Shown here in pieces: positions 3,016 to 54,972 of a DNA stretch of 64,000 nt. Every line of letters begins with the position of its first letter. Position 1 is the stretch's first letter. Below the pieces are notes generated by a model. That model was not told the origin of the DNA and did no database searches. It saw nothing but the letters and a program-made list of their open reading frames with translations. The DNA comes from an uncultured Candidatus Saccharibacteria bacterium (GTDB lineage Bacteria > Patescibacteriota > Minisyncoccia > Phycocordibacterales > CAIRYW01). The stretch is from NCBI GenBank assembly GCA_964386665.1, contig CAYLQP010000003.1, forward strand, positions 28,731 through 92,730. The letters are read 5' to 3'. Both the position numbers and the translations under genes were made by a program.

Positions 3016-4169
3016 ACAAACTCCAAACTTCTGTTGGGGGTATCACATTTGAGACCCCGCTTCTACTCGCGTCTGGCTACATCACAGAAACACCAGACTT
3101 CTGCCTACGTTCGAAGCGATTCGGTTGTGCAGGTATGGTGACACGCTCTCTCAAGGAGCATGTGCCACCAGAACGATCACGGGTCCCATCACCACGTTAC
3201 AGCATCTTCGGTCAAACATCGATGCTCAACTGTGAATGGGGCAACGAGCATCCTTGGACCAACTGGAGAGATGGTTGGGCCGATAAAGTCAGATCTTCTG
3301 GCAATCGCCTGATTATTTCCTTCAGTGGAAGAGACATTGCAGGATGTGCAAACTTGATCGGAGCATTCGCTGAACAAGCAGATGCTTTCGAGATTAATGT
3401 GTCCTGCTCTCATTCGGGAGCTTTGCACGGTAATCTCAATCTTGACTTTGATCATCTTCGCGAACTTCTCCGAACCATCAGACCAATCACAAAAATTCCA
3501 ATCTGGCTCAAATTGTCTTACTCACCCATCGTGGTGGAGATGGCAAAAGTTGGCCAGGAGGAAGGCGCGGATGCCATAGTCTGCACCAACACGATTGGAC
3601 CTGGTCTACTCATCGATATTGAAACTGGCCTCCCAAAGGTTGGAATCAAAGGCGGTGCAGGTGGAGTTTCAGGCCCAGCGATTTTCCCAATCGCCATGCG
3701 CTGTGTCTATGAAATCAGTCAGGCAGTTACCATTCCTGTGGTTGGTGTCGGTGGCATATCCAGTGCTGAAGACGTCCTACAGATGATGATGGTTGGTGCC
3801 TCCGCTGTGCAACTTTACACATTGCCAGCACTCAAAGGTCCACGGTCGTTCAAAGCGATCAAAGAAGGTCTCATCAGTTTTCTCGATACTCACACTCAAT
3901 ACGGAAGCTTGCATGACATCGTTGGTCTAAGCCATAATAAGGCTAAGTCCCATCGGTTTATCGCACCTATTCCTACAGTATCAATCGACAAGTGCACAGG
4001 GTGTGGCATTTGTGTTTCAAGTTGTGCTTTCGATGCAATCAAACTCACCAAAGGTAGTGAGGGTCCGAAAGCAGAAATAAAAAGTAATTGCACAAGCTGT
4101 AACGCATGTCTCGGGGTATGCCCACCAGAACTTAATGCAATATCAACAACATTCACCAACCATGGCTAA
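3012..4169 (+). CDS. Dihydroorotate/dihydropyrimidine dehydrogenase family flavoprotein with C-terminal 2x[4Fe-4S] ferredoxin domain (PreA-like)
   Basis: Class-1 DHOD-like TIM-barrel motifs (…GGISSAEDVLQMMMVGASAVQLYT…) followed by two CxxCxxCxxxCP clusters (CTGCGICVSSC, CTSCNACLGVCPP). The ATGA start overlaps the gmk stop, indicating translational coupling. Confidence 0.65.
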   Translation: MNKLQTSVGGITFETPLLLASGYITETPDFCLRSKRFGCAGMVTRSLKEHVPPERSRVPSPRYSIFGQTSMLNCEWGNEHPWTNWRDGWADKVRSSGNRLIISFSGRDIAGCANLIGAFAEQADAFEINVSCSHSGALHGNLNLDFDHLRELLRTIRPITKIPIWLKLSYSPIVVEMAKVGQEEGADAIVCTNTIGPGLLIDIETGLPKVGIKGGAGGVSGPAIFPIAMRCVYEISQAVTIPVVGVGGISSAEDVLQMMMVGASAVQLYTLPALKGPRSFKAIKEGLISFLDTHTQYGSLHDIVGLSHNKAKSHRFIAPIPTVSIDKCTGCGICVSSCAFDAIKLTKGSEGPKAEIKSNCTSCNACLGVCPPELNAISTTFTNHG

Positions 4170-35793: not shown

Positions 35794-36672
35794 GTGTATA
35801 TGCTCTCTTCCTTCCCTATCAAAAAACTCACTCCTGAAGAATTCCCTCAAGCGCTTTTGGAAATCCCACAGGTTCCTAAACAATTATTTATTCGTGGTAC
35901 GTTTCCAAAAGATCTCGTAATGCTCGCAGTTGTTGGTACTCGCAAATATACTCCTTATGGTAAAGAAGTATGCAAAAAACTCATCGCAGGACTACAAGGG
36001 TATCCGATCTGTATTGTTTCAGGTCTTGCTCTTGGAATCGATGCGATTGCTCATGAAGCAGCCTTGAACTCAAAACTTGCCACTCTTGCAGTTCCAGGTT
36101 CAGGGCTAGATAGCAGTGTGATCTACCCTCGAAGTAATCTTTCACTTGCCGAAAGAATCCTGAACACAGGAGGATGTCTTCTTTCAGAATTTCTTCCAAC
36201 CGAAAAGGCAGCTCTTTGGACCTTCCCACAAAGAAATCGCATTATGGCAGGGCTTGCAAAAGCCGTACTTATTATTGAAGCAGAAGAAAAAAGCGGCACA
36301 CTCATCACTGCTCGGCTTGCAATAGAATATAACCGAGATGTACTCACTGTTCCCGGATCGATCTTTTCACCTACTAGTTCTGGACCCGCCCTTCTCCTTC
36401 GTCTTGGTGCAACTCCTATTACAAAAAGTGAAGATATTCTTGAAGCACTTGGTTTTTCAAAAGAAACAAAACAAAATATAGCTGATACTCTTTTTGATGA
36501 TTTGAATGAAGAAGAAAAACAAATTGTTATGTTACTTAAAGAATCTCCTTACAGTCGTGAAGACCTCGCAACAAAAAGTAATTTTGATATTTCAAAACTA
36601 AATACAATCCTTATGATGCTTGAAATCAAAGGAGTTACAAATGAGTTACTTGGTAAAATTATTTTGCGTTAA
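35794..36672 (+). CDS. dprA: DNA processing protein DprA (Smf)
   Basis: …VVGTRKYTPYGKEV…SGLALGIDAIAHEAAL… Rossmann-like DprA core. Confidence 0.8.
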   Translation: MYMLSSFPIKKLTPEEFPQALLEIPQVPKQLFIRGTFPKDLVMLAVVGTRKYTPYGKEVCKKLIAGLQGYPICIVSGLALGIDAIAHEAALNSKLATLAVPGSGLDSSVIYPRSNLSLAERILNTGGCLLSEFLPTEKAALWTFPQRNRIMAGLAKAVLIIEAEEKSGTLITARLAIEYNRDVLTVPGSIFSPTSSGPALLLRLGATPITKSEDILEALGFSKETKQNIADTLFDDLNEEEKQIVMLLKESPYSREDLATKSNFDISKLNTILMMLEIKGVTNELLGKIILR

Positions 36673-36714
36673 TATTTGCCAAAAAATACATTTACATATA
36701 TGTTATAGAAATAT

Positions 36715-38985
36715 ATGTCACATACATCAAAAAAACTTCTCATCGTCGAGTCCCCTGCAAAAGCAAAAACAATCGAGAAATATCTCGAAGGTGCTTATAC
36801 TGTGCGCGCTTCCATTGGGCACGTTCGTGATCTTCCCTCTTCAAACAAAAAAGCAATTGATATAGAAGCAGGATTTGTTCCCCATTATGAAATTTCAAAA
36901 GGAAAAGAAAAAGTAATCGACGAACTCAAATCAATCGCAAAAAAATCAGACACAATCCTCCTTGCAACTGACCCCGACCGAGAAGGAGAAGCTATCGCTT
37001 GGCATTTAAGTGAATTACTTAAAACATCTACAAAAGGCAAAGAAGTTCACCGAGTGACATATCACGAAATCACCAAAGAAGCGATAGAAGAAGCCTTGAA
37101 ACATCCGCGTCCAATTGACCAACATCTACGCCAAGCTCAAGAAGCTCGTCGTGTGCTTGACCGTCTGGTTGGATACGATCTCTCAGGTATCATCTGGAAA
37201 AAAGTTCGTTATGGACTCTCAGCAGGACGAGTTCAATCTCCAGCACTGCGTATACTTATGGAACGAGAACGAGAAATTCGCAGTTTCACCCCTGAACAAT
37301 ACTTTGTCATTTCTGGTCTTTTTGAAACACAAAAAAAAGATACACTAACACTTACTTGTGCAATCGAGCCAAAGGAAGCAGTAGAAGCAAAACGAATCGT
37401 TGATCTTGCAAATGCACATCCGTGGCATATTGTTGATATTGAACATACTGAAGTCAAACGTGCACCAAAAGCTCCATTTACTACTTCTACTCTCCAACAA
37501 TCAGCTTCGACACGATACGGATTCTCTCCTTCAAACACAATGCGAATAGCTCAAAAGCTTTATGAACAAGGACATATCACCTATATGCGAACAGACAGTA
37601 CAAACCTTGCAGAAAGTGCTTTGAAAACAATCGCACAAACAATAAAAGAAATGTACGGAAATAACTATCTTGAACATCGAACATTCAAGGCGAAATCAAA
37701 AAATGCTCAAGAAGCTCACGAAGCAATCCGTCCAACCCATATCGAAAAGACATCACTTGGCAACACCGAAGAAGAAAAGAAACTTTATCGACTTATTTGG
37801 GCACGAACGATTGCAAGTCAAATGAGTGATGCAAAAATGTCTCGAACAAAAATCATTGCAAACATTGCTACTGCAAACCAAATCCCTGACTTTTCTGCCA
37901 CTGGTTCAACTATTGCATTTGATGGGTGGCTTCGAGGAGATCCTGATGCAAAAGGAGAAGAAAACATTTTGCCTCAAGTTGCAAAAAACGAAACACTCAA
38001 ACTCCTTGAAATCCAAAACGAAGCCAAGCAAACTCTTCCTCCAAACCGTTACAGTGAAGCAGGACTTATCAAAGAACTTGAAAAACGTGGAATTGGAAGA
38101 CCTTCTACCTATGCTGCAATCATTAGAACACTTGAGGAACGCGAGTACGTCACAAAAGAAAACAAAGCACTAAAACCAACAGACACAGGAGATGTTGTTT
38201 CAACTTTTCTTGAAGAAAACTTTGCCAATTATATTAGTGATACATTTACCGCAGAAATGGAAGATGAACTCGATGAAATCGCCAACGGTACTAGAGAATA
38301 CGAAAAAACACTACGAGACTTTTATACTCCGTTTACAAAAGAGCTCAAAGAAAAAGACAAGCTCGCCAAAGCAACGACGTTTGGCGAAGCAGACAGTAAA
38401 CACAGATGTCCAAAATGTGGAAGTGGAATGCTTATCAAACTTTCACGAGGTGGTAAGTTTCTTAGTTGTGAAAAATTTCCAGACTGTACTGGGGCACTCA
38501 CTCTCGAAGGACTTGAAATCAAAAGTGATGAACCAATTGGAATTGACCCAGTAAGTGGGCTTCCTATCTTTGTAAAAACAGGACGTTTTGGACCATATGT
38601 ACAACTTGGAATACAAATTAAAAAAACAAAGGCAAAAACAAAAAAGAAAAAAGAAGGTACAGCAGAAACAGCTGAAGAGCCAAAAGGTACTGTAACCAAA
38701 GCTCGAATGGCTTCAATTCCAAAAGAAGTCAATCCAAACGATGTCACAGTTCCAATGGCAATGAAATATCTGTCCCTTCCACGAGTTCTTGGAACACACC
38801 CTCAAAGTGGGAAAGAAATTCTTGCAAACAAAGGACGGTTTGGTCCTTATATTGTGCACGATGGAGATTTCCGATCACTAAAAAAAGATGATGTGTTTGA
38901 AATCACACTTGAGCGCGCACTTGAAATCCTCAGTGAAGAAAAGAAAGTAGGTCGTGGACGATTTACAAAAAAGAAAAAAGAATAA
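36715..38985 (+). CDS. topA: DNA topoisomerase I
   Basis: TOPRIM (KKLLIVESPAKAKTI), the catalytic Tyr region, and a C-terminal C4 zinc ribbon (CPKCGSGM…CEKFPDC). Confidence 0.9.
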   Translation: MSHTSKKLLIVESPAKAKTIEKYLEGAYTVRASIGHVRDLPSSNKKAIDIEAGFVPHYEISKGKEKVIDELKSIAKKSDTILLATDPDREGEAIAWHLSELLKTSTKGKEVHRVTYHEITKEAIEEALKHPRPIDQHLRQAQEARRVLDRLVGYDLSGIIWKKVRYGLSAGRVQSPALRILMEREREIRSFTPEQYFVISGLFETQKKDTLTLTCAIEPKEAVEAKRIVDLANAHPWHIVDIEHTEVKRAPKAPFTTSTLQQSASTRYGFSPSNTMRIAQKLYEQGHITYMRTDSTNLAESALKTIAQTIKEMYGNNYLEHRTFKAKSKNAQEAHEAIRPTHIEKTSLGNTEEEKKLYRLIWARTIASQMSDAKMSRTKIIANIATANQIPDFSATGSTIAFDGWLRGDPDAKGEENILPQVAKNETLKLLEIQNEAKQTLPPNRYSEAGLIKELEKRGIGRPSTYAAIIRTLEEREYVTKENKALKPTDTGDVVSTFLEENFANYISDTFTAEMEDELDEIANGTREYEKTLRDFYTPFTKELKEKDKLAKATTFGEADSKHRCPKCGSGMLIKLSRGGKFLSCEKFPDCTGALTLEGLEIKSDEPIGIDPVSGLPIFVKTGRFGPYVQLGIQIKKTKAKTKKKKEGTAETAEEPKGTVTKARMASIPKEVNPNDVTVPMAMKYLSLPRVLGTHPQSGKEILANKGRFGPYIVHDGDFRSLKKDDVFEITLERALEILSEEKKVGRGRFTKKKKE

Positions 38986-48521: not shown

Positions 48522-48956
48522 TTAAAATGCGCCGGTTTGACTAAGTTTTTCTGCCAAGCTATCTGCCTGCTTAACAATCTTTTGTTTGTAGTCTCCCCAT
48601 TTCTTTTCGTTCCACATTTCAATCCGTTTGTGCACTCCAATAAAGACACATTTGTCTTTAAGCGTTGCATACTCTCGTAAATACTCAGGAATCAAAAGAC
48701 GACCAAGAGAGTCTATTTCGATTTCAACAGCTCCACCAAACATAAAGCGGTTAAATTCTCGGGTGTCTGATCGCATCATTCCAAGTTTTGCGATTTCTTC
48801 GGAGATTTTTTCCCATTCCTTCACTGTGTACAAGAACAGACATTGTTCAAGTCCATAAGTGGCAACAATTTTTTTTCCAACTTCTTTTCGAAATTTCGAA
48901 GGAAGTGAAATTCTTTTTTTGTCGTCGATTGTATGAGTAAATTCTCCGATTAACAT
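48522..48956 (-). CDS. mraZ: Transcriptional regulator MraZ
   Basis: Starts MLIGEFTHTIDDKKRISLP, with a second DxxxR repeat (…EIEIDSLGRLLIP…). The track start at 49049 is upstream and out of family. Confidence 0.8.
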   Translation of the reverse strand: MLIGEFTHTIDDKKRISLPSKFRKEVGKKIVATYGLEQCLFLYTVKEWEKISEEIAKLGMMRSDTREFNRFMFGGAVEIEIDSLGRLLIPEYLREYATLKDKCVFIGVHKRIEMWNEKKWGDYKQKIVKQADSLAEKLSQTGAF

Positions 48957-49194
48957 ATGTTTTTGTGATACAAAATGATTTACCACTTCATACCACTTAC
49001 ATAACATTATATCCCACTTCAACCCATATGCAAACAAAGTTTTCCACAATTATGGCGCTCAATTTTGGTTTCTTCGAAACCAAAATTTAGCGCCATACCG
49101 CCCCCCCCCATATTTTACAAAAAAAGACATTTAATATATAAAAAGTAAATATATTTCACACGGACACGGACACCAAAAACATACAGAACCCCCA

Positions 49195-49278
49195 GTGTTA
49201 GCAGCACTGCTCATTGTGTTAACCTTACTTGCCTGCGCATTGTATTGCGCATGGAAAGCAGGCTTACTCACCTTCTAA
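49195..49278 (+). CDS. Candidate 27-aa hydrophobic peptide gene (GTG start)
   Basis: Reads VLAALLIVLTLLACALYCAWKAGLLTF*. It is preceded by a σ70-like tttaca-17-atataa and followed directly by a strong terminator. Confidence 0.25.
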   Translation: MLAALLIVLTLLACALYCAWKAGLLTF

Positions 49279-49281
49279 CGA

Positions 49282-49311
49282 CGAAATCCTTCACAGGATT
49301 CGTCTTTTTTT
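49282..49311 (+). terminator. Rho-independent terminator
   Basis: gacgaaatcc-ttcaca-ggattcgtc + T9. Confidence 0.6.
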
Positions 49312-49602
49312 TATGCGCGACATAAAGTGAATGAAATACAGAAGTGATCTTTCTTATTTCTGAGCCAAGGGACTAATCGGGTAACAACCCCGATACCCTG
49401 CGTCGAGGCTGTTGATTTAAAAACCATTATGTTATAAACGTTTTTCTTCAAAACACAACAAAAACACAAATTTGACTACTTAACAAATAAATAGTATAAT
49501 AAGTCCAGTCCAAAAGAGTGTCTTTGTGTTGCCTTCCTGGCACCACATCGTAACAACTTACGCTCTTTGACACACTACTCAACGAAAAAACCAACTCGTC
49601 AC

Positions 49603-50886
49603 ATGAAAATTATCTTCTACCTCCTCTTTGCAGCCATCGTGCTGCTTCTAGGAACGACTCTTAGTCTGCTCATTTGGGCAGGCATGTACGTCTTCCGTAC
49701 CTCAACTTCAATGGGGTTTACATACCTCATAGGAGTAACGATCTCCGCAACATTCCTCATTATCCTCGGATGGTGGTGGTATAAAACGGAGCTGCCAAAA
49801 ATTTGGCGCTCCCTTGCCGAGAAAGAAAAGTTCATCACACTGGCTCCAGAAAAACATTTCGTCCCAATTGAAAGAGCGGGTCGGTTTGTTTGGGGATTCA
49901 AATGTGAAGGAGGACTAATCATTCTCCTAATTCCACGCCCCTCAAGACAAGCAGGAGACCCTTGCTTGATAACTGTAATGCCAGAAAATATCTTTTCCGG
50001 GCTTGACTTAATCTTGTACCACTATTTCGTGGGACAGGGTTACGTCTGGCTAGGTTTTGATGCAAGTTCACAGGGGACAACTCGTGTAGGATCTCTTGCA
50101 ATACCCAAGGCAAGGTTGCAAAAAAGAGAGGGTCTTGATGAAGTTCAGATCAAAGTGGAGCCCATCAAGGCTCTTCGACTCACCTTCCAACGGTACGTCG
50201 TTGTGTCTGAAATCGAAACCACTGACGGACACAAGCTTCGTCTTTTGGCCCTTGCTATAGTAACTGTCACGGACCCCTACCTTGCTTGGTATGGTCTTGG
50301 AGGGAAAGCATACGAAACCCTCGATACGATAGTGGCAACACTAATTCGTACAGAGGGGGAAAAACACTCACTCGTCTCGATGTATCAGTCTGGTGCAAAC
50401 GGACAGGATGAAATCGAAGAGGAGATAAAAGAAGGATCCATAGAGACTGAAAGAAAATTAGGAATGAAGATCACTCTTACCATTGAAGAATGGGAAGATG
50501 ATGCTGGTCCTGGATTTCGAATCTTCATTGGTCGGGTCCAAACCGCTCAACAAGAGACGGCTAACCAGATCGCAGAGATGGAAATGCGAATCCGTATCGC
50601 AGAAAAGAAGGGAGATGAGCTCGCAGCCCAAGCACTCCTTGAAGTGGAACGAGCAAAGCTTGAAATACAGCGAAAGCTCGCAAACGAAGAGGAATACAAG
50701 GCTCTTCTTGCCCTCGCAGGAGGAAAAGAAGATGCTGTCATACACATAGTTCTCAAACAACAGCTTGGAGACGATCTCTACAAGAAGTATGTCGACGCTG
50801 ATGCACTAAAGCACACAAAGGTGCAAGTGCTTGGCACTAACGCAACCCCACTCATTAACCTACCACAACCACCAACTCAACCATGA
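49603..50886 (+). CDS. SPFH/band-7 (flotillin/stomatin-like) membrane protein
   Basis: Two N-terminal TM helices, an SPFH core (…LAIVTVTDPYLAWYGLG…) and a C-terminal EA-rich coiled coil (…AEMEMRIRIAEKKGDELAAQALLEVERAKLEIQ…). The region is GC-rich (~50%). Confidence 0.55.
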   Translation: MKIIFYLLFAAIVLLLGTTLSLLIWAGMYVFRTSTSMGFTYLIGVTISATFLIILGWWWYKTELPKIWRSLAEKEKFITLAPEKHFVPIERAGRFVWGFKCEGGLIILLIPRPSRQAGDPCLITVMPENIFSGLDLILYHYFVGQGYVWLGFDASSQGTTRVGSLAIPKARLQKREGLDEVQIKVEPIKALRLTFQRYVVVSEIETTDGHKLRLLALAIVTVTDPYLAWYGLGGKAYETLDTIVATLIRTEGEKHSLVSMYQSGANGQDEIEEEIKEGSIETERKLGMKITLTIEEWEDDAGPGFRIFIGRVQTAQQETANQIAEMEMRIRIAEKKGDELAAQALLEVERAKLEIQRKLANEEEYKALLALAGGKEDAVIHIVLKQQLGDDLYKKYVDADALKHTKVQVLGTNATPLINLPQPPTQP

Positions 50887-51704
50887 ATCCAGTCGTAATA
50901 ACCATTCTTGCATTCGCAGTGCCACTTCTGGTGGTACTGTGGTTTGCAATAAAATGGTTCAGAGGCCTTACATACCGCTCTTCCTCTGGAGCTGGTAACA
51001 GGTCCAAATGGACCATCCTGTCCATCGCGACCCTTGTGCTGGCGACGGCCTTTGGCGGATGGATAGGGCTTAGCCTTTCGGGGCTGGCATTGTCCTTTGT
51101 GTGGATGCACTTTATGCCAGGGCAAACCTGGTTCAAGTGGTCGACAGCAGCTTGCGGACTCATACTGCTTATGTCTCTAGTGCTCAACCAAAGCGCCAAG
51201 ACCAAAGCAGCGAAAGAAACGCGGATAGCGGAGGCAAGCCAAGGCTTCCGCAAGTCTGAGCTTATCGCTCGTGCGAAGGCACGAGGCAAGATAGTGAACG
51301 AGGACGCTGCCATCTGGGAAGGCACCTTAGAGACGTTTGATGTGGCAACACATCGATACGTTCCAGGATGGTCTGGGCAAGAGGTGGAAATCCTTGTCTG
51401 GGAAGAAGATGAATTCATCCTGCAGATGGAAATGCAGGATGGAAGCATACTCCACTTGGAGTATGACGAAGCATCCATTGGTCCCCAAAAGGGCGAGTGG
51501 ACGTGGTCATCGAGGATCCGGAGAGAGGAAGGAAGGTTTAGCCTCTCGACCGTATTGTCCGGACCGGCGTCGAGCAAGGGATTTGGTGGGATCATCACAG
51601 GTCTCCCACTCCCTAAAGGTCAAACAGGGGTGTTCCCGCCCCTGGAGTTCCGGTTCATCCCTAACCGGACACTTGCGGATGTAATCCGCAAGTTCGTTGA
51701 GTAG
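50883..51704 (+). CDS. Polytopic membrane protein translationally coupled to the SPFH gene (possible NfeD-like partner)
   Basis: ATGA overlap with the upstream stop. 3-4 N-terminal TM helices, then a ~170-aa soluble domain. Confidence 0.45.
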   Translation: MNPVVITILAFAVPLLVVLWFAIKWFRGLTYRSSSGAGNRSKWTILSIATLVLATAFGGWIGLSLSGLALSFVWMHFMPGQTWFKWSTAACGLILLMSLVLNQSAKTKAAKETRIAEASQGFRKSELIARAKARGKIVNEDAAIWEGTLETFDVATHRYVPGWSGQEVEILVWEEDEFILQMEMQDGSILHLEYDEASIGPQKGEWTWSSRIRREEGRFSLSTVLSGPASSKGFGGIITGLPLPKGQTGVFPPLEFRFIPNRTLADVIRKFVE

Positions 51705-51716
51705 TGTCCCACGCAA

Positions 51717-51748
51717 GCGGAGGATCCCCTGGATCCTCCGCTTTTTTA
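51717..51748 (+). terminator. Rho-independent terminator
   Basis: gcggaggatcc-cctg-ggatcctccgc + T6. Confidence 0.65.
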
Positions 51749-51848: not shown

Positions 51849-52169
51849 TTATTGACGAGGCAAGATTTTATCCACGTTTTGTATAGTACTTGGATCACTA
51901 CTGATTCCGAATGTATTGAGTACGATTCGAACAATCGTAAATGTCATCATCATAATAGCCATTCCAATAATACCCCACATAATCTGATTGGCTCCTTTTT
52001 GTCTTACCTCTTCATTATCTGCTCCAGAAATATAACCACGAACTCCCCAAAGAAAAACAAACAACGCAACAACGAACATTACGACAATAAGCGGATTTAC
52101 GATAGCTCCATTGAGCTTCAAGATAAATTCGGTTACTGGTGTTGCAGCTGCTGCGATGTTTTGTTCCAT
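51849..52169 (-). CDS. VirB2/TrbC-like two-helix hairpin membrane protein, paralog 1 (no signal peptide)
   Basis: Conserved module …IVNPLIVVMFVVALFVFLWGV-RGYISGADNEEVRQKG-ANQIMWGIIGMAIMMMTF…. Confidence 0.5.
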   Translation of the reverse strand: MEQNIAAAATPVTEFILKLNGAIVNPLIVVMFVVALFVFLWGVRGYISGADNEEVRQKGANQIMWGIIGMAIMMMTFTIVRIVLNTFGISSDPSTIQNVDKILPRQ

Positions 52170-52179
52170 TCTATGAAGG

Positions 52180-52533
52180 TTAGTTAGGGATGATAACTCG
52201 TGGAAGATCAGGAGAAGTAGTCACATCTCCAGAACCGAAGATTGAACTTCGAAGGATATTTACAAATCCCCATACAGCTGTCATCACAAAGAGTGCAATG
52301 ATACCAAAGATAATCATTCCTCGTGCTGCTGCTCGCGCTTCTTCGTCTCCTCCTGCTGTTACATACTTAAGTACCCCCACCAAGAAAAGAAGAAGTGCTA
52401 TTCCAACAATAAGTGGAATAAGTCTATCAATAATACCTGCAAGCGAACTAATTCCCGCTTCGATATTTGAAAAATCCGCCGCCATTGAAAGACCTGGCAC
52501 AAGCGCTACGACTGCTAACAAAAATTTTTTCAT
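52180..52533 (-). CDS. VirB2/TrbC-like secreted membrane protein, paralog 2
   Basis: Signal peptide MKKFLLAVVALVPGLSMA|AD, then LIPLIVGIALLLFLVGVL-KYVTAGGDEEARAAARG-MIIFGIIALFVMTAVWGF. Confidence 0.55.
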   Translation of the reverse strand: MKKFLLAVVALVPGLSMAADFSNIEAGISSLAGIIDRLIPLIVGIALLLFLVGVLKYVTAGGDEEARAAARGMIIFGIIALFVMTAVWGFVNILRSSIFGSGDVTTSPDLPRVIIPN

Positions 52534-52567
52534 TTTTAATTTGATTAATCTAATAATTTTGATTTAT

Positions 52568-52585
52568 TCTGTTTAAGAACAGAAA
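52568..52585 (-). promoter_or_regulatory. Hairpin plus TACAAT-containing promoter-like region in the only gap of the array
   Basis: ttctgtt-ctta-aacagaa, with tttttgttgctacaatat about 30 bp upstream of paralog 2. Confidence 0.3.
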
Positions 52586-52657
52586 TCACTAATACATATA
52601 TTGTAGCAACAAAAAAACGAAATTGCTATGCACCAAATACAAAACTGTGGATTACAG

Positions 52658-53050
52658 TTATTGACAAGTAGCCTTGAAACTACCTCCCTGTGCTGCAAAC
52701 TGTGGTACTCCAAATGAATCGCCGAGACCAAAACTTGCAACAAAAATTTTGAGTATTCCCCAAATAGACACCATAAAGAAAAATCCAACGATTCCATAAA
52801 TCATCATTTTGTTTCCGGCTGACCGTTTTTCTTCATTATCTCCGTGACTAACATATTTGATAAGTCCCGTCAAAAACGCTCCAACTGCAATCACAACAAC
52901 AAAAGGAATAAAATCAAGAACAATTTTAACAAAAATACAAATAATCTCCTTAAAACTTGTTGGCGCAGCTGGCTTCCCTGTACTTTGAGCAAAAAGTAAA
53001 ACAGGAAGTGTTAGAAGTGTAATAATGAATGAAAAGAATATATGTTTCAT
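52658..53050 (-). CDS. VirB2/TrbC-like secreted membrane protein, paralog 3
   Basis: Start taken at the internal MKHIFF. Signal peptide …LLFA|QS, then …FIPFVVVIAVGAFLTGLI-KYVSHGDNEEKRSAGNK-MMIYGIVGFFFMVSIWGI…. Confidence 0.55.
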   Translation of the reverse strand: MKHIFFSFIITLLTLPVLLFAQSTGKPAAPTSFKEIICIFVKIVLDFIPFVVVIAVGAFLTGLIKYVSHGDNEEKRSAGNKMMIYGIVGFFFMVSIWGILKIFVASFGLGDSFGVPQFAAQGGSFKATCQ

Positions 53051-53051
53051 A

Positions 53052-53429
53052 TTATTTAAGTGGGAGATAGTTAGGGATAGCAGTATCAGTTGAAAAGAAA
53101 GTTCGAACCACCAGATTAGTAATCCCCCAGAAAGCAACCATCACAAACAATACAACGAGTCCATAGATCATCACGTGACGACCATTTTGCCTTGCTTCTT
53201 CGTCATCTCCCGATTTTATAAACTTAATAACACCAGCAAGAAATGTTAAAAGAGCCACTGCAATAAGGGCAGGAATAAACCCTTTCATATTCCCCCATGC
53301 GAAGGTAAAAAACACATCACTGATAGTTTCTGGTGTTGTGGGAGGAGTATAGTTTGGACCCACTGCACATGTAAGCAGAGGTGTTAAGAAAAATGTAAAT
53401 ACTAGTATGTGACTAAAATATTTTTGCAT
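53052..53429 (-). CDS. VirB2/TrbC-like secreted membrane protein, paralog 4 (possible lipoprotein signal LLTC)
   Basis: Start MQKYFSHIL; …FIPALIAVALLTFLAGVI-KFIKSGDDEEARQNGRH-VMIYGLVVLFVMVAFWGI…. Confidence 0.55.
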   Translation of the reverse strand: MQKYFSHILVFTFFLTPLLTCAVGPNYTPPTTPETISDVFFTFAWGNMKGFIPALIAVALLTFLAGVIKFIKSGDDEEARQNGRHVMIYGLVVLFVMVAFWGITNLVVRTFFSTDTAIPNYLPLK

Positions 53430-53430
53430 A

Positions 53431-53844
53431 TTATTTGAATGGTGTTGTTGATTGTGGTGGAAGTGCTGGCATTTCAAATGAAGAGGCTGGGAAAATAGTT
53501 GAGTACAAAATCTTTACCAGTCCCCACACCGACGTCATTACAAAAAGTGCAATAATTCCAAAAAGCATAAGTCCTCTTCCTGCTTCTCTCGCTTCTTCGT
53601 TATCCCCACTTTTGACATATTTGAGAACCCCTACAATAAACATCACAAGAGCAAGCGCAAACAAGAAAGGAATAACGTATTTAGAAATAAGACAGATAGA
53701 AAACGTAAATAGTTGTCCAATGTCATTTGGTTGTCTACACGCAGATGCTGCAGGGGCAGATGTCGGATTCTGTGCTGATACAAACAAAGGAAGAATGACT
53801 AATGTGGCTGTAAAGAAAATAGATAACAATGTTTTTTTGTGCAT
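53431..53844 (-). CDS. VirB2/TrbC-like secreted membrane protein, paralog 5
   Basis: Signal peptide …LFVSA|QN, then …VIPFLFALALVMFIVGVL-KYVKSGDNEEAREAGRG-LMLFGIIALFVMTSVWGL…. Confidence 0.55.
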   Translation of the reverse strand: MHKKTLLSIFFTATLVILPLFVSAQNPTSAPAASACRQPNDIGQLFTFSICLISKYVIPFLFALALVMFIVGVLKYVKSGDNEEAREAGRGLMLFGIIALFVMTSVWGLVKILYSTIFPASSFEMPALPPQSTTPFK

Positions 53845-53849
53845 ATAGA

Positions 53850-54218
53850 TTATGTTAATTGATTAACTGTTCCTTCGATAATTTTGAAGATAACCTTTGC
53901 TCCAAGAAGGACTGCGGTTCCTACCATCGCCCAGGTAATAGTTTTGCGTCCATTTGAAACCTTCTCTTCATCTCCTGCTGCAGTCACCAAAAGAAATCCT
54001 CCGTACATTATACCCAACACCGAGACAATAACTCCGAGTTGAATAAGTCCATCAACAATAGATGCAAAGAACCCTGAAAGACTAGTGGCTTCAATTGGAT
54101 TTTGGATTGTATTTGAATTTTTGCCCCCAGATGCTTCCGCTAATACAAACAAAGGAAAAACCCACAAGGTCAAAATTATAAATGATTTATTTTTAAAAAA
54201 TGTGAGTGTTTTTTTCAT
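53850..54218 (-). CDS. VirB2/TrbC-like secreted membrane protein, paralog 6
   Basis: Start MKKTLTFF. Signal peptide …FVLA|EA, then …LIQLGVIVSVLGIMYGGFLLV-TAAGDEEKVSNGRK-TITWAMVGTAVLLGAKVI…. Confidence 0.5.
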   Translation of the reverse strand: MKKTLTFFKNKSFIILTLWVFPLFVLAEASGGKNSNTIQNPIEATSLSGFFASIVDGLIQLGVIVSVLGIMYGGFLLVTAAGDEEKVSNGRKTITWAMVGTAVLLGAKVIFKIIEGTVNQLT

Positions 54219-54228
54219 ACGTATTTCA

Positions 54229-54972
54229 TTAACCCAATAAACTAAATCCTTCTTTTGCCCCAAGAACCGTAAGTAATGTTTTTACAAGAAGCCATCCCAT
54301 AAGCACAAACAAGATTCCCATAAACGTTTTACTAAAAATGCCGTGGGCTTGCTCTATTTTACCACCATTTCCAAAAGCTGTCATATAAAGAAAACCTGCA
54401 TACGCAAACGCAATGGCTGACAATGATGCAGCAATATAAACCAAAAATTCAATAATACGGTTTATTAAAATAATAATATCTCTCCAACCACATCCTCCAG
54501 CATCTTTCCCAAACGTTGGATTATCTACGCAGTTTGGGGGTACTATCTGGAAATTTTCGTTCACAGGATCTCCTGTATTTTTGATATCAAGCTCTATTCG
54601 ATCTTCTTGAGAGAGACCTGGTACAAATGAAGGATCAGTTAATTCTTCATCCGCATAACTACTAAATTCATTTATAAAATCTTCTCTAAATCCTGCGTTA
54701 CTTTCATACAAACCATCAAGTTCGTCTGGATCATATTGACTATAATCATCGTGTGAATTAATAAAATCAATTAATAATTCACGAATAAGCGCTCCTTGCG
54801 GATCAGTTGGCTCATCTCCAAATGAATAATTTTCAAAATACCAAAGAACAGTTTCTTGAGGAAGTGTAGAGATTTGTTGTGCCTTTATATGAGACGAAAC
54901 TACTCCTCCTCCAACAAAAAAGAGGGTTGCAAAAAAAATGGAATATATCTTTTTATTTATTGTATTCATCAA
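54229..54972 (-). CDS. Larger secreted acidic protein carrying the same C-terminal two-helix hairpin module, paralog 7
   Basis: Signal peptide, a ~150-aa D/E-rich ectodomain, then …IEFLVYIAASLSAIAFAYAGFLYM-TAFGNGGKIEQAHG-IFSKTFMGILFVLMGWLLV…. Confidence 0.5.
   Translation of the reverse strand: MMNTINKKIYSIFFATLFFVGGGVVSSHIKAQQISTLPQETVLWYFENYSFGDEPTDPQGALIRELLIDFINSHDDYSQYDPDELDGLYESNAGFREDFINEFSSYADEELTDPSFVPGLSQEDRIELDIKNTGDPVNENFQIVPPNCVDNPTFGKDAGGCGWRDIIILINRIIEFLVYIAASLSAIAFAYAGFLYMTAFGNGGKIEQAHGIFSKTFMGILFVLMGWLLVKTLLTVLGAKEGFSLLG

Follow-up and report, generated by a model that had tools for sequence, protein, structure and literature searches.

Small single-pass membrane proteins such as KdpF, AcrZ and MgtS accompany membrane complexes. 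Membrane scaffold proteins of the SPFH type also have linked small partners, among them the NfeD-type proteins of the YbbJ-QmcA and YuaF-FloT pairs, which carry a soluble OB-fold domain and are co-transcribed with the SPFH gene. Small membrane proteins are systematically missed in annotation, above all in the genomes of uncultured CPR bacteria and Saccharibacteria. Leaderless genes for small proteins have been described in mycobacteria (PMC4633059), and pairing between the 5′ and 3′ untranslated regions of a single mRNA in icaR (PMC3868564).

Here a mini-gene of this general kind was analyzed in a stretch of 64,000 nucleotides of DNA from an uncultured Candidatus Saccharibacteria bacterium, referred to throughout as the window. 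An earlier note, made from the letters of the window, had proposed a self-contained unit of promoter, hydrophobic open reading frame (ORF) and terminator beside an SPFH operon, encoding either a toxin or a small membrane regulator.

Genomic setting and the SPFH-type operon

The mini-gene is located in a gap of 646 nt between mraZ and a two-gene operon (49603-51704), beyond which lies an array of pilin genes:
49603-50886, plus strand: SPFH-type membrane protein of 427 amino acids, in which a divergent SPFH domain is predicted between two N-terminal transmembrane (TM) helices and a long C-terminal helix
50883-51704, plus strand: polytopic membrane partner of 273 amino acids, whose start overlaps the SPFH stop by 4 nt
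51849-54263, minus strand: array of five to seven T4SS_pilin (PF18895) genes, also found in L005, L008, L012, L013, L015, L016 and L017

The name SPFH operon in the earlier note was correct in substance but needed support from outside the window, as the 427-residue protein itself gave no match in Pfam. Three of four close family members matched Band_7 (best E 1.6e-4), and weak Band_7/SPFH matches were present in two distant members (P0014 and P0017). The AlphaFold model (AF2) of the window protein was of low confidence (pLDDT 50); the top 40 PDB matches to it in Foldseek were nevertheless all prohibitin, HflK/C, flotillin and stomatin, plus one major vault protein, with E values down to 7e-6. 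The predicted layout is that of SPFH proteins: after two TM helices at the N-terminus comes a beta/alpha domain, and then a helix of 58 residues (303-360). A sequence search of the PDB with the SPFH-family profile returned nothing. Judged on the model together with the family matches, the protein is taken to be a divergent SPFH protein. The 273-residue partner is poorly conserved and has no Pfam family; an NfeD identity was considered for it and rejected, there being no support in Pfam.

Close relatives of the 427-residue protein (~49% identity) numbered three among 5.8 billion proteins, and 28 representatives were recovered at E < 1e-3 among 1.84 billion. A phage origin was discarded, with no relatives among viral contigs. 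One relative (L018) is annotated as Candidatus Saccharibacteria. The GC content of the operon is 47-53% compared to 38% for the window. The operon is convergent with the pilin array in the window and in L005, L012, L013, L015, L016 and L017, and an SBP_bac_1 gene follows the array wherever the contig reaches that far (window, L008 and L012). This synteny is kept down to ~25% protein identity and thus the operon is no recent island despite its higher GC content. The earlier picture of a mini-gene at the edge of a GC-rich island was abandoned accordingly: the operon is GC-richer, yet its synteny with the pilin array is conserved and the SPFH gene is served by a conserved promoter and leader of its own. 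Membrane organization beside a pilin gene array may matter for host contact.

On the other side of the gap, mraZ is encoded on the minus strand with its ATG at 48956 (Pfam MraZ, E 2e-37) and heads a series mraZ-rsmH-ftsL-ftsI. Three direct AAGTGG repeats on the minus strand (49019-49014, 48998-48993 and 48988-48983; spacings of 21 and 10 nt) lie on either side of the -10 box of mraZ (49011-49006), within 48983-49019. The repeats resemble operator boxes of MraZ, which binds GTGG-type repeats. In several relatives the module is preceded instead by tRNA-Leu(TAG) (L015 41-324; L012 3386-3560; L016 655-790; L003 239-323; L017 17-99). After this tRNA, the relatives have repeated pieces of its 3′ end in direct and inverted orientation, at the place that mraZ occupies in the window; the pieces resemble the scars that successive integrations at a tRNA would leave.

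Promoter and terminator of the mini-gene

The signals that bound the transcription unit are:
49114-49142, plus strand: sigma-70-like promoter read from the sequence, with -35 box TTTACA (49114-49119), 17 nt, and -10 box TATAAA (49137-49142)
49280-49312, plus strand: intrinsic terminator, with a hairpin at 49280-49304 (10-bp stem, one bulge) followed by T8 at 49305-49312

The promoter matches the consensus at 10 of 12 positions. The TTTACA box and 17-nt spacer of the earlier proposal are both present, but the -10 box lacks the final T (position 6), which is why a consensus scan skipped this promoter. L001, which is another assembly of this organism, has TTGACA as its -35 box. The terminator has a dG of -11.3 kcal/mol and a z-score of -4.06, and none of 200 shuffles folded as well. 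It is present as the earlier note had stated, although its stem begins 1 nt rather than 3 nt after the stop codon. On the plus strand an A-run precedes and a T-run follows the hairpin, and hence the terminator acts on plus-strand transcripts only. The distance from the terminator to the operon promoter is 160 nt in the window. No Rfam match to the mini-transcript was found at gathering or permissive thresholds.

The reading frame of the proposed small protein

Two nested versions of the frame were compared:
49195-49278, plus strand: 27-codon frame starting with GTG, the sole frame with a canonical start codon in the window version
49153-49278, plus strand: probable full frame of the small protein, 41 codons, starting with ATG in L001 and ATT in the window

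The GTG frame is present with the translation that the earlier note gave for it, VLAALLIVLTLLACALYCAWKAGLLTF*, and is unusual for its composition: a plus-strand ORF of at least 27 codons that is equally hydrophobic occurred in 0.16% of Markov randomizations of the 646-nt intergenic region. As a gene boundary, however, the 27-residue form is probably wrong. The frame upstream of the GTG is open from 49135, and both the sibling assembly and a homologue in a relative (L003) start with ATG-Ser and a polar head, giving products of 41 and 37 amino acids, respectively. The L001 product is MSHGHGHENHTEPPVLAALLIVLTLLACALYCAWKAGLLTF, laid out as MSHGHGHENHTEPP, one TM helix and CAWKAGLLTF. The TM segment comprises residues 15-33 of the 41-codon frame, with a mean Kyte-Doolittle value of 2.71 over 19 residues, making the peptide a single-TM protein of <50 amino acids. 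ATG-initiated ORFs of such length and hydrophobicity arose by chance in 0 of 5000 randomizations for L001 and in 1.4% for L003. A gene caller reported the 41-residue product on the L001 contig. The small frame was called in this one raw assembly only, the window version being under the usual length limit of gene callers. Within the 41-codon frame the window and L001 differ in the first codon (ATT in the window) and in residues Q8 and K9, such that three of three differences inside the extended frame are amino acid changes. Irrespective of which allele this strain truly carries, the functional form is the one given by the L001 allele and its L003 homologue.

The position of the ATG also bears on how translation would begin. 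The GTG at 49195 lies 52 nt into the transcript without a ribosome-binding signal, whereas the L001 ATG at 49153 lies 10 nt past the -10 box and would thus leave an mRNA leader of just 3-4 nt. In the genome at large, a Shine-Dalgarno-like core was found in 3 of 43 long ORFs, and TATAAT-like boxes are enriched 6-11 nt upstream of ATGs. A leaderless start fits with this scarcity of Shine-Dalgarno sites and with -10 boxes so close to many ATGs. Thus, the 5′ untranslated region of ~50 nt that had been proposed gives way to a leaderless or nearly leaderless arrangement, the ATG following the -10 box by 10 nt in L001 and by 6 nt in L003.

Database searches placed the peptide in no named family. The best Pfam match, to DUF4750, fell below threshold (16.4 bits against a cut-off of 27), and among 5.8 billion predicted proteins the L001 call was the sole homologue, ORFs so short being rarely called. 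PADLOC and PHROGs, applied to the three proteins, gave nothing useful and nothing above threshold. With both peptides as queries, tblastn found no further copies in the window or in any of the fetched loci; a weak match in the L016 partner protein, to a segment rich in His and Gly, was dismissed as low complexity (E 0.04 in a tiny database).

The 3′ end of the mini-ORF resembles part of the SPFH gene. The last codons, CTC ACC TTC TAA (LTF*), together with half of the terminator (49266-49308), align with 50178-50246 when two gaps are allowed. The counterpart in the SPFH gene is CTC ACC TTC CAA, which forms part of a conserved RLTFQRY motif. An origin of the mini-ORF as a duplicated fragment of the SPFH gene was rejected, as the similarity is marginal in the window (local-alignment p ~0.007) and absent in L003; it is either chance or the relic of a small duplication.

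Conservation of the mini-gene in relatives

The same unit is present upstream of the orthologous operon in L003, where the SPFH protein is 49% identical to that of the window. There the promoter TTTACA-17-TATACT (10 of 12 matches) is followed after 6 nt by the ATG, and the terminator, 10 nt past the stop codon, gives way directly to the operon promoter. The 37-residue L003 product is MSAHSDETKPRPVVLVIIITLAWGVYYLLRCWGINIL. A third contig (L002) starts inside the ORF and reads ...ALLFFIIKG*, its stop overlapping a strong terminator with a gap of 0 nt. The full peptides of L001 and L003 share a Met-Ser start, a polar head, a proline-containing junction and one TM helix, and Lys or Arg stands directly after the hydrophobic stretch in all three peptides, including the C-terminal fragment from L002. 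The self-contained unit described in the earlier note for a one-helix peptide next to the SPFH-type operon was thus borne out by the similar architecture in related loci.

Global alignment of the L001 and L003 peptides scored 37 against -14 ± 9 for shuffled sequences, with 0 of 2000 shuffles reaching 37, a score that largely reflects the shared architecture which shuffling destroys. Identity between the peptides is low, at ~11 of 41 residues, and the small ORF is present in three loci only, one of them partial; both points count against the small-membrane-protein reading. The upstream neighbor is tRNA-Leu(TAG) in L003 and mraZ in the window, which indicates that the peptide gene travels with the operon. 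Linkage to the operon was seen in three of three close-clade loci in which the region is visible and in two upstream contexts, a small number of loci. No upstream counterpart was found in five distant relatives of 20-30% identity (L012/L013, L015, L016, L017 and L011), so that the peptide appears to be specific to the clade. Moreover, the mini-gene is a transcription unit separate from the SPFH operon, which counts against a link to the SPFH module through co-regulation.

A variable patch and palindrome upstream of the mini-gene

The L001 sequence, a Logan assembly of run SRR12762291 (9314 nt), is identical to the window over 9.3 kb save for 16 positions, all of which fall within 49073-49179 (L001 6590-6696). 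This patch begins inside a palindrome:
49051-49097, no strand: palindrome with 22-bp arms around a 3-nt loop, flanked by the divergent promoters of mraZ and the mini-gene

The palindrome occurs once in the window. Its arms have one mismatch in the window and are perfect in L001, where the loop is flipped; the dG is -28.5 in the window and -34.9 in L001, with z-scores of -9 to -10. No Rfam match was obtained at gathering or permissive thresholds. The palindrome may be an operator or hairpin-prone DNA. An unrelated palindrome with 12-bp arms (345-376) spans the -35 box of the mini-gene in L003, and L012 has one with 21-bp arms (~3695-3745) upstream of the operon promoter.

An exact flip of the 3-nt loop (TTC/GAA) accounts for three of the 16 differences, and each of the remaining 13 is a transversion. 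At 10 of these 13 positions the window repeats the base on its 5′ side, compared to 0 of 13 for L001, and homopolymers in the window thereby grow to C9 and A7. Yet another assembly, that of SRR12762304, breaks off at 49071, 1 base before the first difference. The pattern looks like dephasing-type sequencing error past a very stable hairpin that was taken into the deposited consensus; a true two-allele polymorphism of an ON/OFF kind is the alternative. The window copy, with its ATT codon and weakened -35 box, would be either mis-assembled or an inactive allele. A practical lesson is that the deposited sequence of this region may hold an error cluster right past a strong hairpin, which removes the start codon. 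Two other sources of the patch were rejected. The changes are not adenine-specific and no template copy is present in the window, which makes a diversity-generating retroelement or mechanism of that type unlikely. Gene conversion from a weakly similar promoter at 36672-36722 was set aside because both alleles are equally similar to that promoter.

Promoter, leader and end-to-end complementarity of the SPFH operon

Downstream of the mini-gene terminator, the operon has control elements of its own:
49472-49500, plus strand: SPFH operon promoter, TTGACT-17-TATAAT (11 of 12 matches), kept in 10 of 10 related loci
49501-49602, plus strand: structured operon leader, in which the invariant box CTTTGACA at 49565-49572 pairs as 3′ strand with 49508-49522 to form a closing stem
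51693-51707, plus strand: 15 nt spanning the second-gene stop codon, a perfect complement of leader positions 49572-49586
~51717-51747: SPFH operon terminator, downstream of 51693-51707

Promoters and leaders were compared among the window (49472-49602), L002, L003, L004, L010, L011, L012, L015, L016 and L017. The promoter often carries a TTGAC-N-GTCAA palindrome. The leader is 100-130 nt long and has an invariant G-Y-Y-CTTTGACA box in all ten loci. In every minimum-energy fold this box closes a stem around one or two hairpins; its partner is a purine-rich 5′ segment, GUY-N-ARAGRG, and a three-way junction forms in several loci. Fold z-scores were -2.5 to -5.5 in eight of ten loci. The leader matched no Rfam family at gathering or permissive thresholds. 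TTGACA in the leader box was considered as a second promoter and rejected, as no locus has a -10 box at a workable distance. An extra hairpin with the conserved loop UUUAGAAAGG directly precedes the SPFH start codon in L012 (3971-3991) and L016 (976-994), with covariation in the stem (CCCG/CGGG versus CGUCG/CGAC).

The 9-15 nt that follow the leader box are perfectly complementary to a segment ≤13 nt from the stop codon of the second gene and before the terminator. This complementarity was present in all six loci for which both ends are available, with a different sequence in each:
window: 49572-49586/51693-51707
L002: 174/2270
L012: 3955/6130
L015: 531/2431
L016: 954/3038
L017: 307/2462

In 2.4-12 kb per locus, no stretch complements the leader segment better than this segment at the 3′ end, and in one locus another stretch ties with it. 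Pairing of the mRNA ends, maintained by compensatory change, is the likely explanation on this comparative pattern, and the extension of the L012 duplex through a G:U pair speaks for pairing in RNA. Alternatively, the two segments may be inverted repeats that bound an invertible stretch of DNA; no inverted orientation was found among three assemblies of one relative. The mini-transcript was tried as a small RNA acting on the SPFH leader or on the 3′ end of the operon and was rejected, since RNAduplex energies were no better than those of shuffles. End-to-end mRNA pairing across relatives that are 20-50% identical would be a rare and directly testable bacterial case, and the conserved leader and end complementarity of the operon may outrank the mini-gene in wider interest.

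Interpretation

The best explanation of the hydrophobic frame is that it is a genuine gene with a transcript of its own, encoding a small single-pass membrane protein, likely an accessory component or modulator of the SPFH module in one sub-clade; we put the probability of this reading at about 0.55. It is an ordinary kind of gene, for a new, orphan small membrane protein. Transcription would start 3-4 nt before the ATG in the window clade, or 0 nt before it in L003, and would end at the intrinsic terminator, which starts 0-10 nt past the stop codon. Translation, which we infer, would yield a product of 37-41 amino acids with a polar N-terminal head (His-rich in the window clade), a proline-containing junction, a TM helix, a basic residue and a short tail. 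Once inserted into the membrane, the protein is predicted by the positive-inside rule to adopt an N-out, C-in topology and may act with or on the SPFH protein and its membrane partner. The place upstream of the SPFH operon is fixed despite the changed neighbor, so that a role as an accessory component or modulator of this module is most likely. The putative small membrane regulator is the better half of the proposal in the earlier note, compared to the toxin.

Alternatively, the promoter and terminator may be real and the ORF untranslated here, the element being decayed or non-functional as an off-allele, a pseudogene or the by-product of a non-coding transcript. The ATT codon at 49153, the TTTACA box and the replacement character of all three differences in the extended frame are in keeping with decay, as is the weak likeness of the ORF 3′ end and terminator to an internal segment of the SPFH gene (p ~0.007). 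Furthermore, terminator-like hairpins stand just upstream of the SPFH promoter in L011, L017 and L016, which have no ORF, and thus insulation of this promoter needs no peptide gene. Nevertheless, a similar hydrophobic ATG frame is kept in L001 and L003 despite ~50% divergence of the neighboring protein, and the copying of 5′ neighbors by the window bases, absent from L001, looks technical and not evolutionary. Decay is therefore regarded as unlikely. The population switch that the alternative interpretation of the patch would entail is a highly speculative extension: the peptide would serve an SPFH cage specific to Saccharibacteria as its dedicated small subunit or gatekeeper, and control-region alleles in the ~100-nt patch would turn it ON or OFF in the population. 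One allele would combine TTGACA, ATG and the perfect palindrome, and the other TTTACA, ATT and the imperfect palindrome with flipped loop, upstream of an operon whose mRNA 5′ leader would pair with its own 3′ end.

The closeness of stop codon and terminator stem, at 1 nt in the window, 10 nt in L003 and 0 nt in L002, with the operon on the same strand, would also suit a leader peptide. Translation up to a stop abutting the stem would hinder the hairpin, and read-through would couple the SPFH operon to translation or membrane insertion of the peptide. Attenuation of this kind is improbable, however, because the operon has its own strong promoter in 10 of 10 loci and a conserved leader past the terminator, the window has 160 nt between terminator and operon promoter, the fold offers no alternative antiterminator pairing (z only -1.8) and relatives do without the ORF. 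Still less is to be said for a type I toxin, that is, a membrane-depolarizing peptide checked by an antisense or overlapping small RNA, although a small hydrophobic one-helix peptide with its own promoter and terminator is what such a system would comprise. A consensus scan of the window, L001 and L003, which may miss weak promoters, detected no minus-strand promoter within or just downstream of the ORF; nearby, that strand has only the mraZ promoter and a weak match (9 of 12) overlapping the SPFH promoter. The terminator is one-directional, and so the antisense RNA over the ORF for which the earlier note had suggested a search has neither promoter nor terminator signals in these sequences. 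The mRNA is leaderless and has no long structured 5′ untranslated region, and nothing rose above threshold in Pfam, PADLOC, PHROGs or Rfam. The gene keeps its place beside one operon although the genomic context differs, which points to a functional partner instead of an addiction module. For these reasons the toxin reading was dropped as very improbable, and the preferred reading is retained of a small membrane protein that accompanies the SPFH module.

Comparison with known systems

The peptide shares with Hok, Fst and TisB its size, hydrophobic helix and monocistronic unit with an intrinsic terminator, but differs from these toxins in having no antisense RNA signals, structured leader or homology, and in its conserved linkage to one operon. 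As in the mycobacterial leaderless genes (PMC4633059), the ATG is at or a few nucleotides from the predicted transcription start, there is no Shine-Dalgarno sequence and the product is very short; the phylum is different, and the start here is predicted from promoter geometry. The candidate pairing of the operon mRNA resembles that of icaR in joining 5′ and 3′ ends, but here it would span a two-gene operon and be kept by compensatory change.

The proposed small protein is closest in kind to KdpF, AcrZ and MgtS, with <50 amino acids, one TM helix, no enzymatic domain and a gene beside the presumed partner membrane machinery, although it has no sequence relationship to them. KdpF is co-transcribed with its pump, whereas the mini-gene has its own promoter and terminator. 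A literature search found no SPFH-associated peptide of similar kind. As in the NfeD-type pairs, a gene for a small membrane protein is linked to that of an SPFH scaffold, but neither the peptide nor the 273-residue partner matches NfeD in Pfam and the mini-gene forms a transcription unit separate from that of the SPFH gene. Should the peptide act together with the SPFH pair, a bacterial SPFH scaffold in an episymbiotic lineage would have an accessory factor unlike NfeD.
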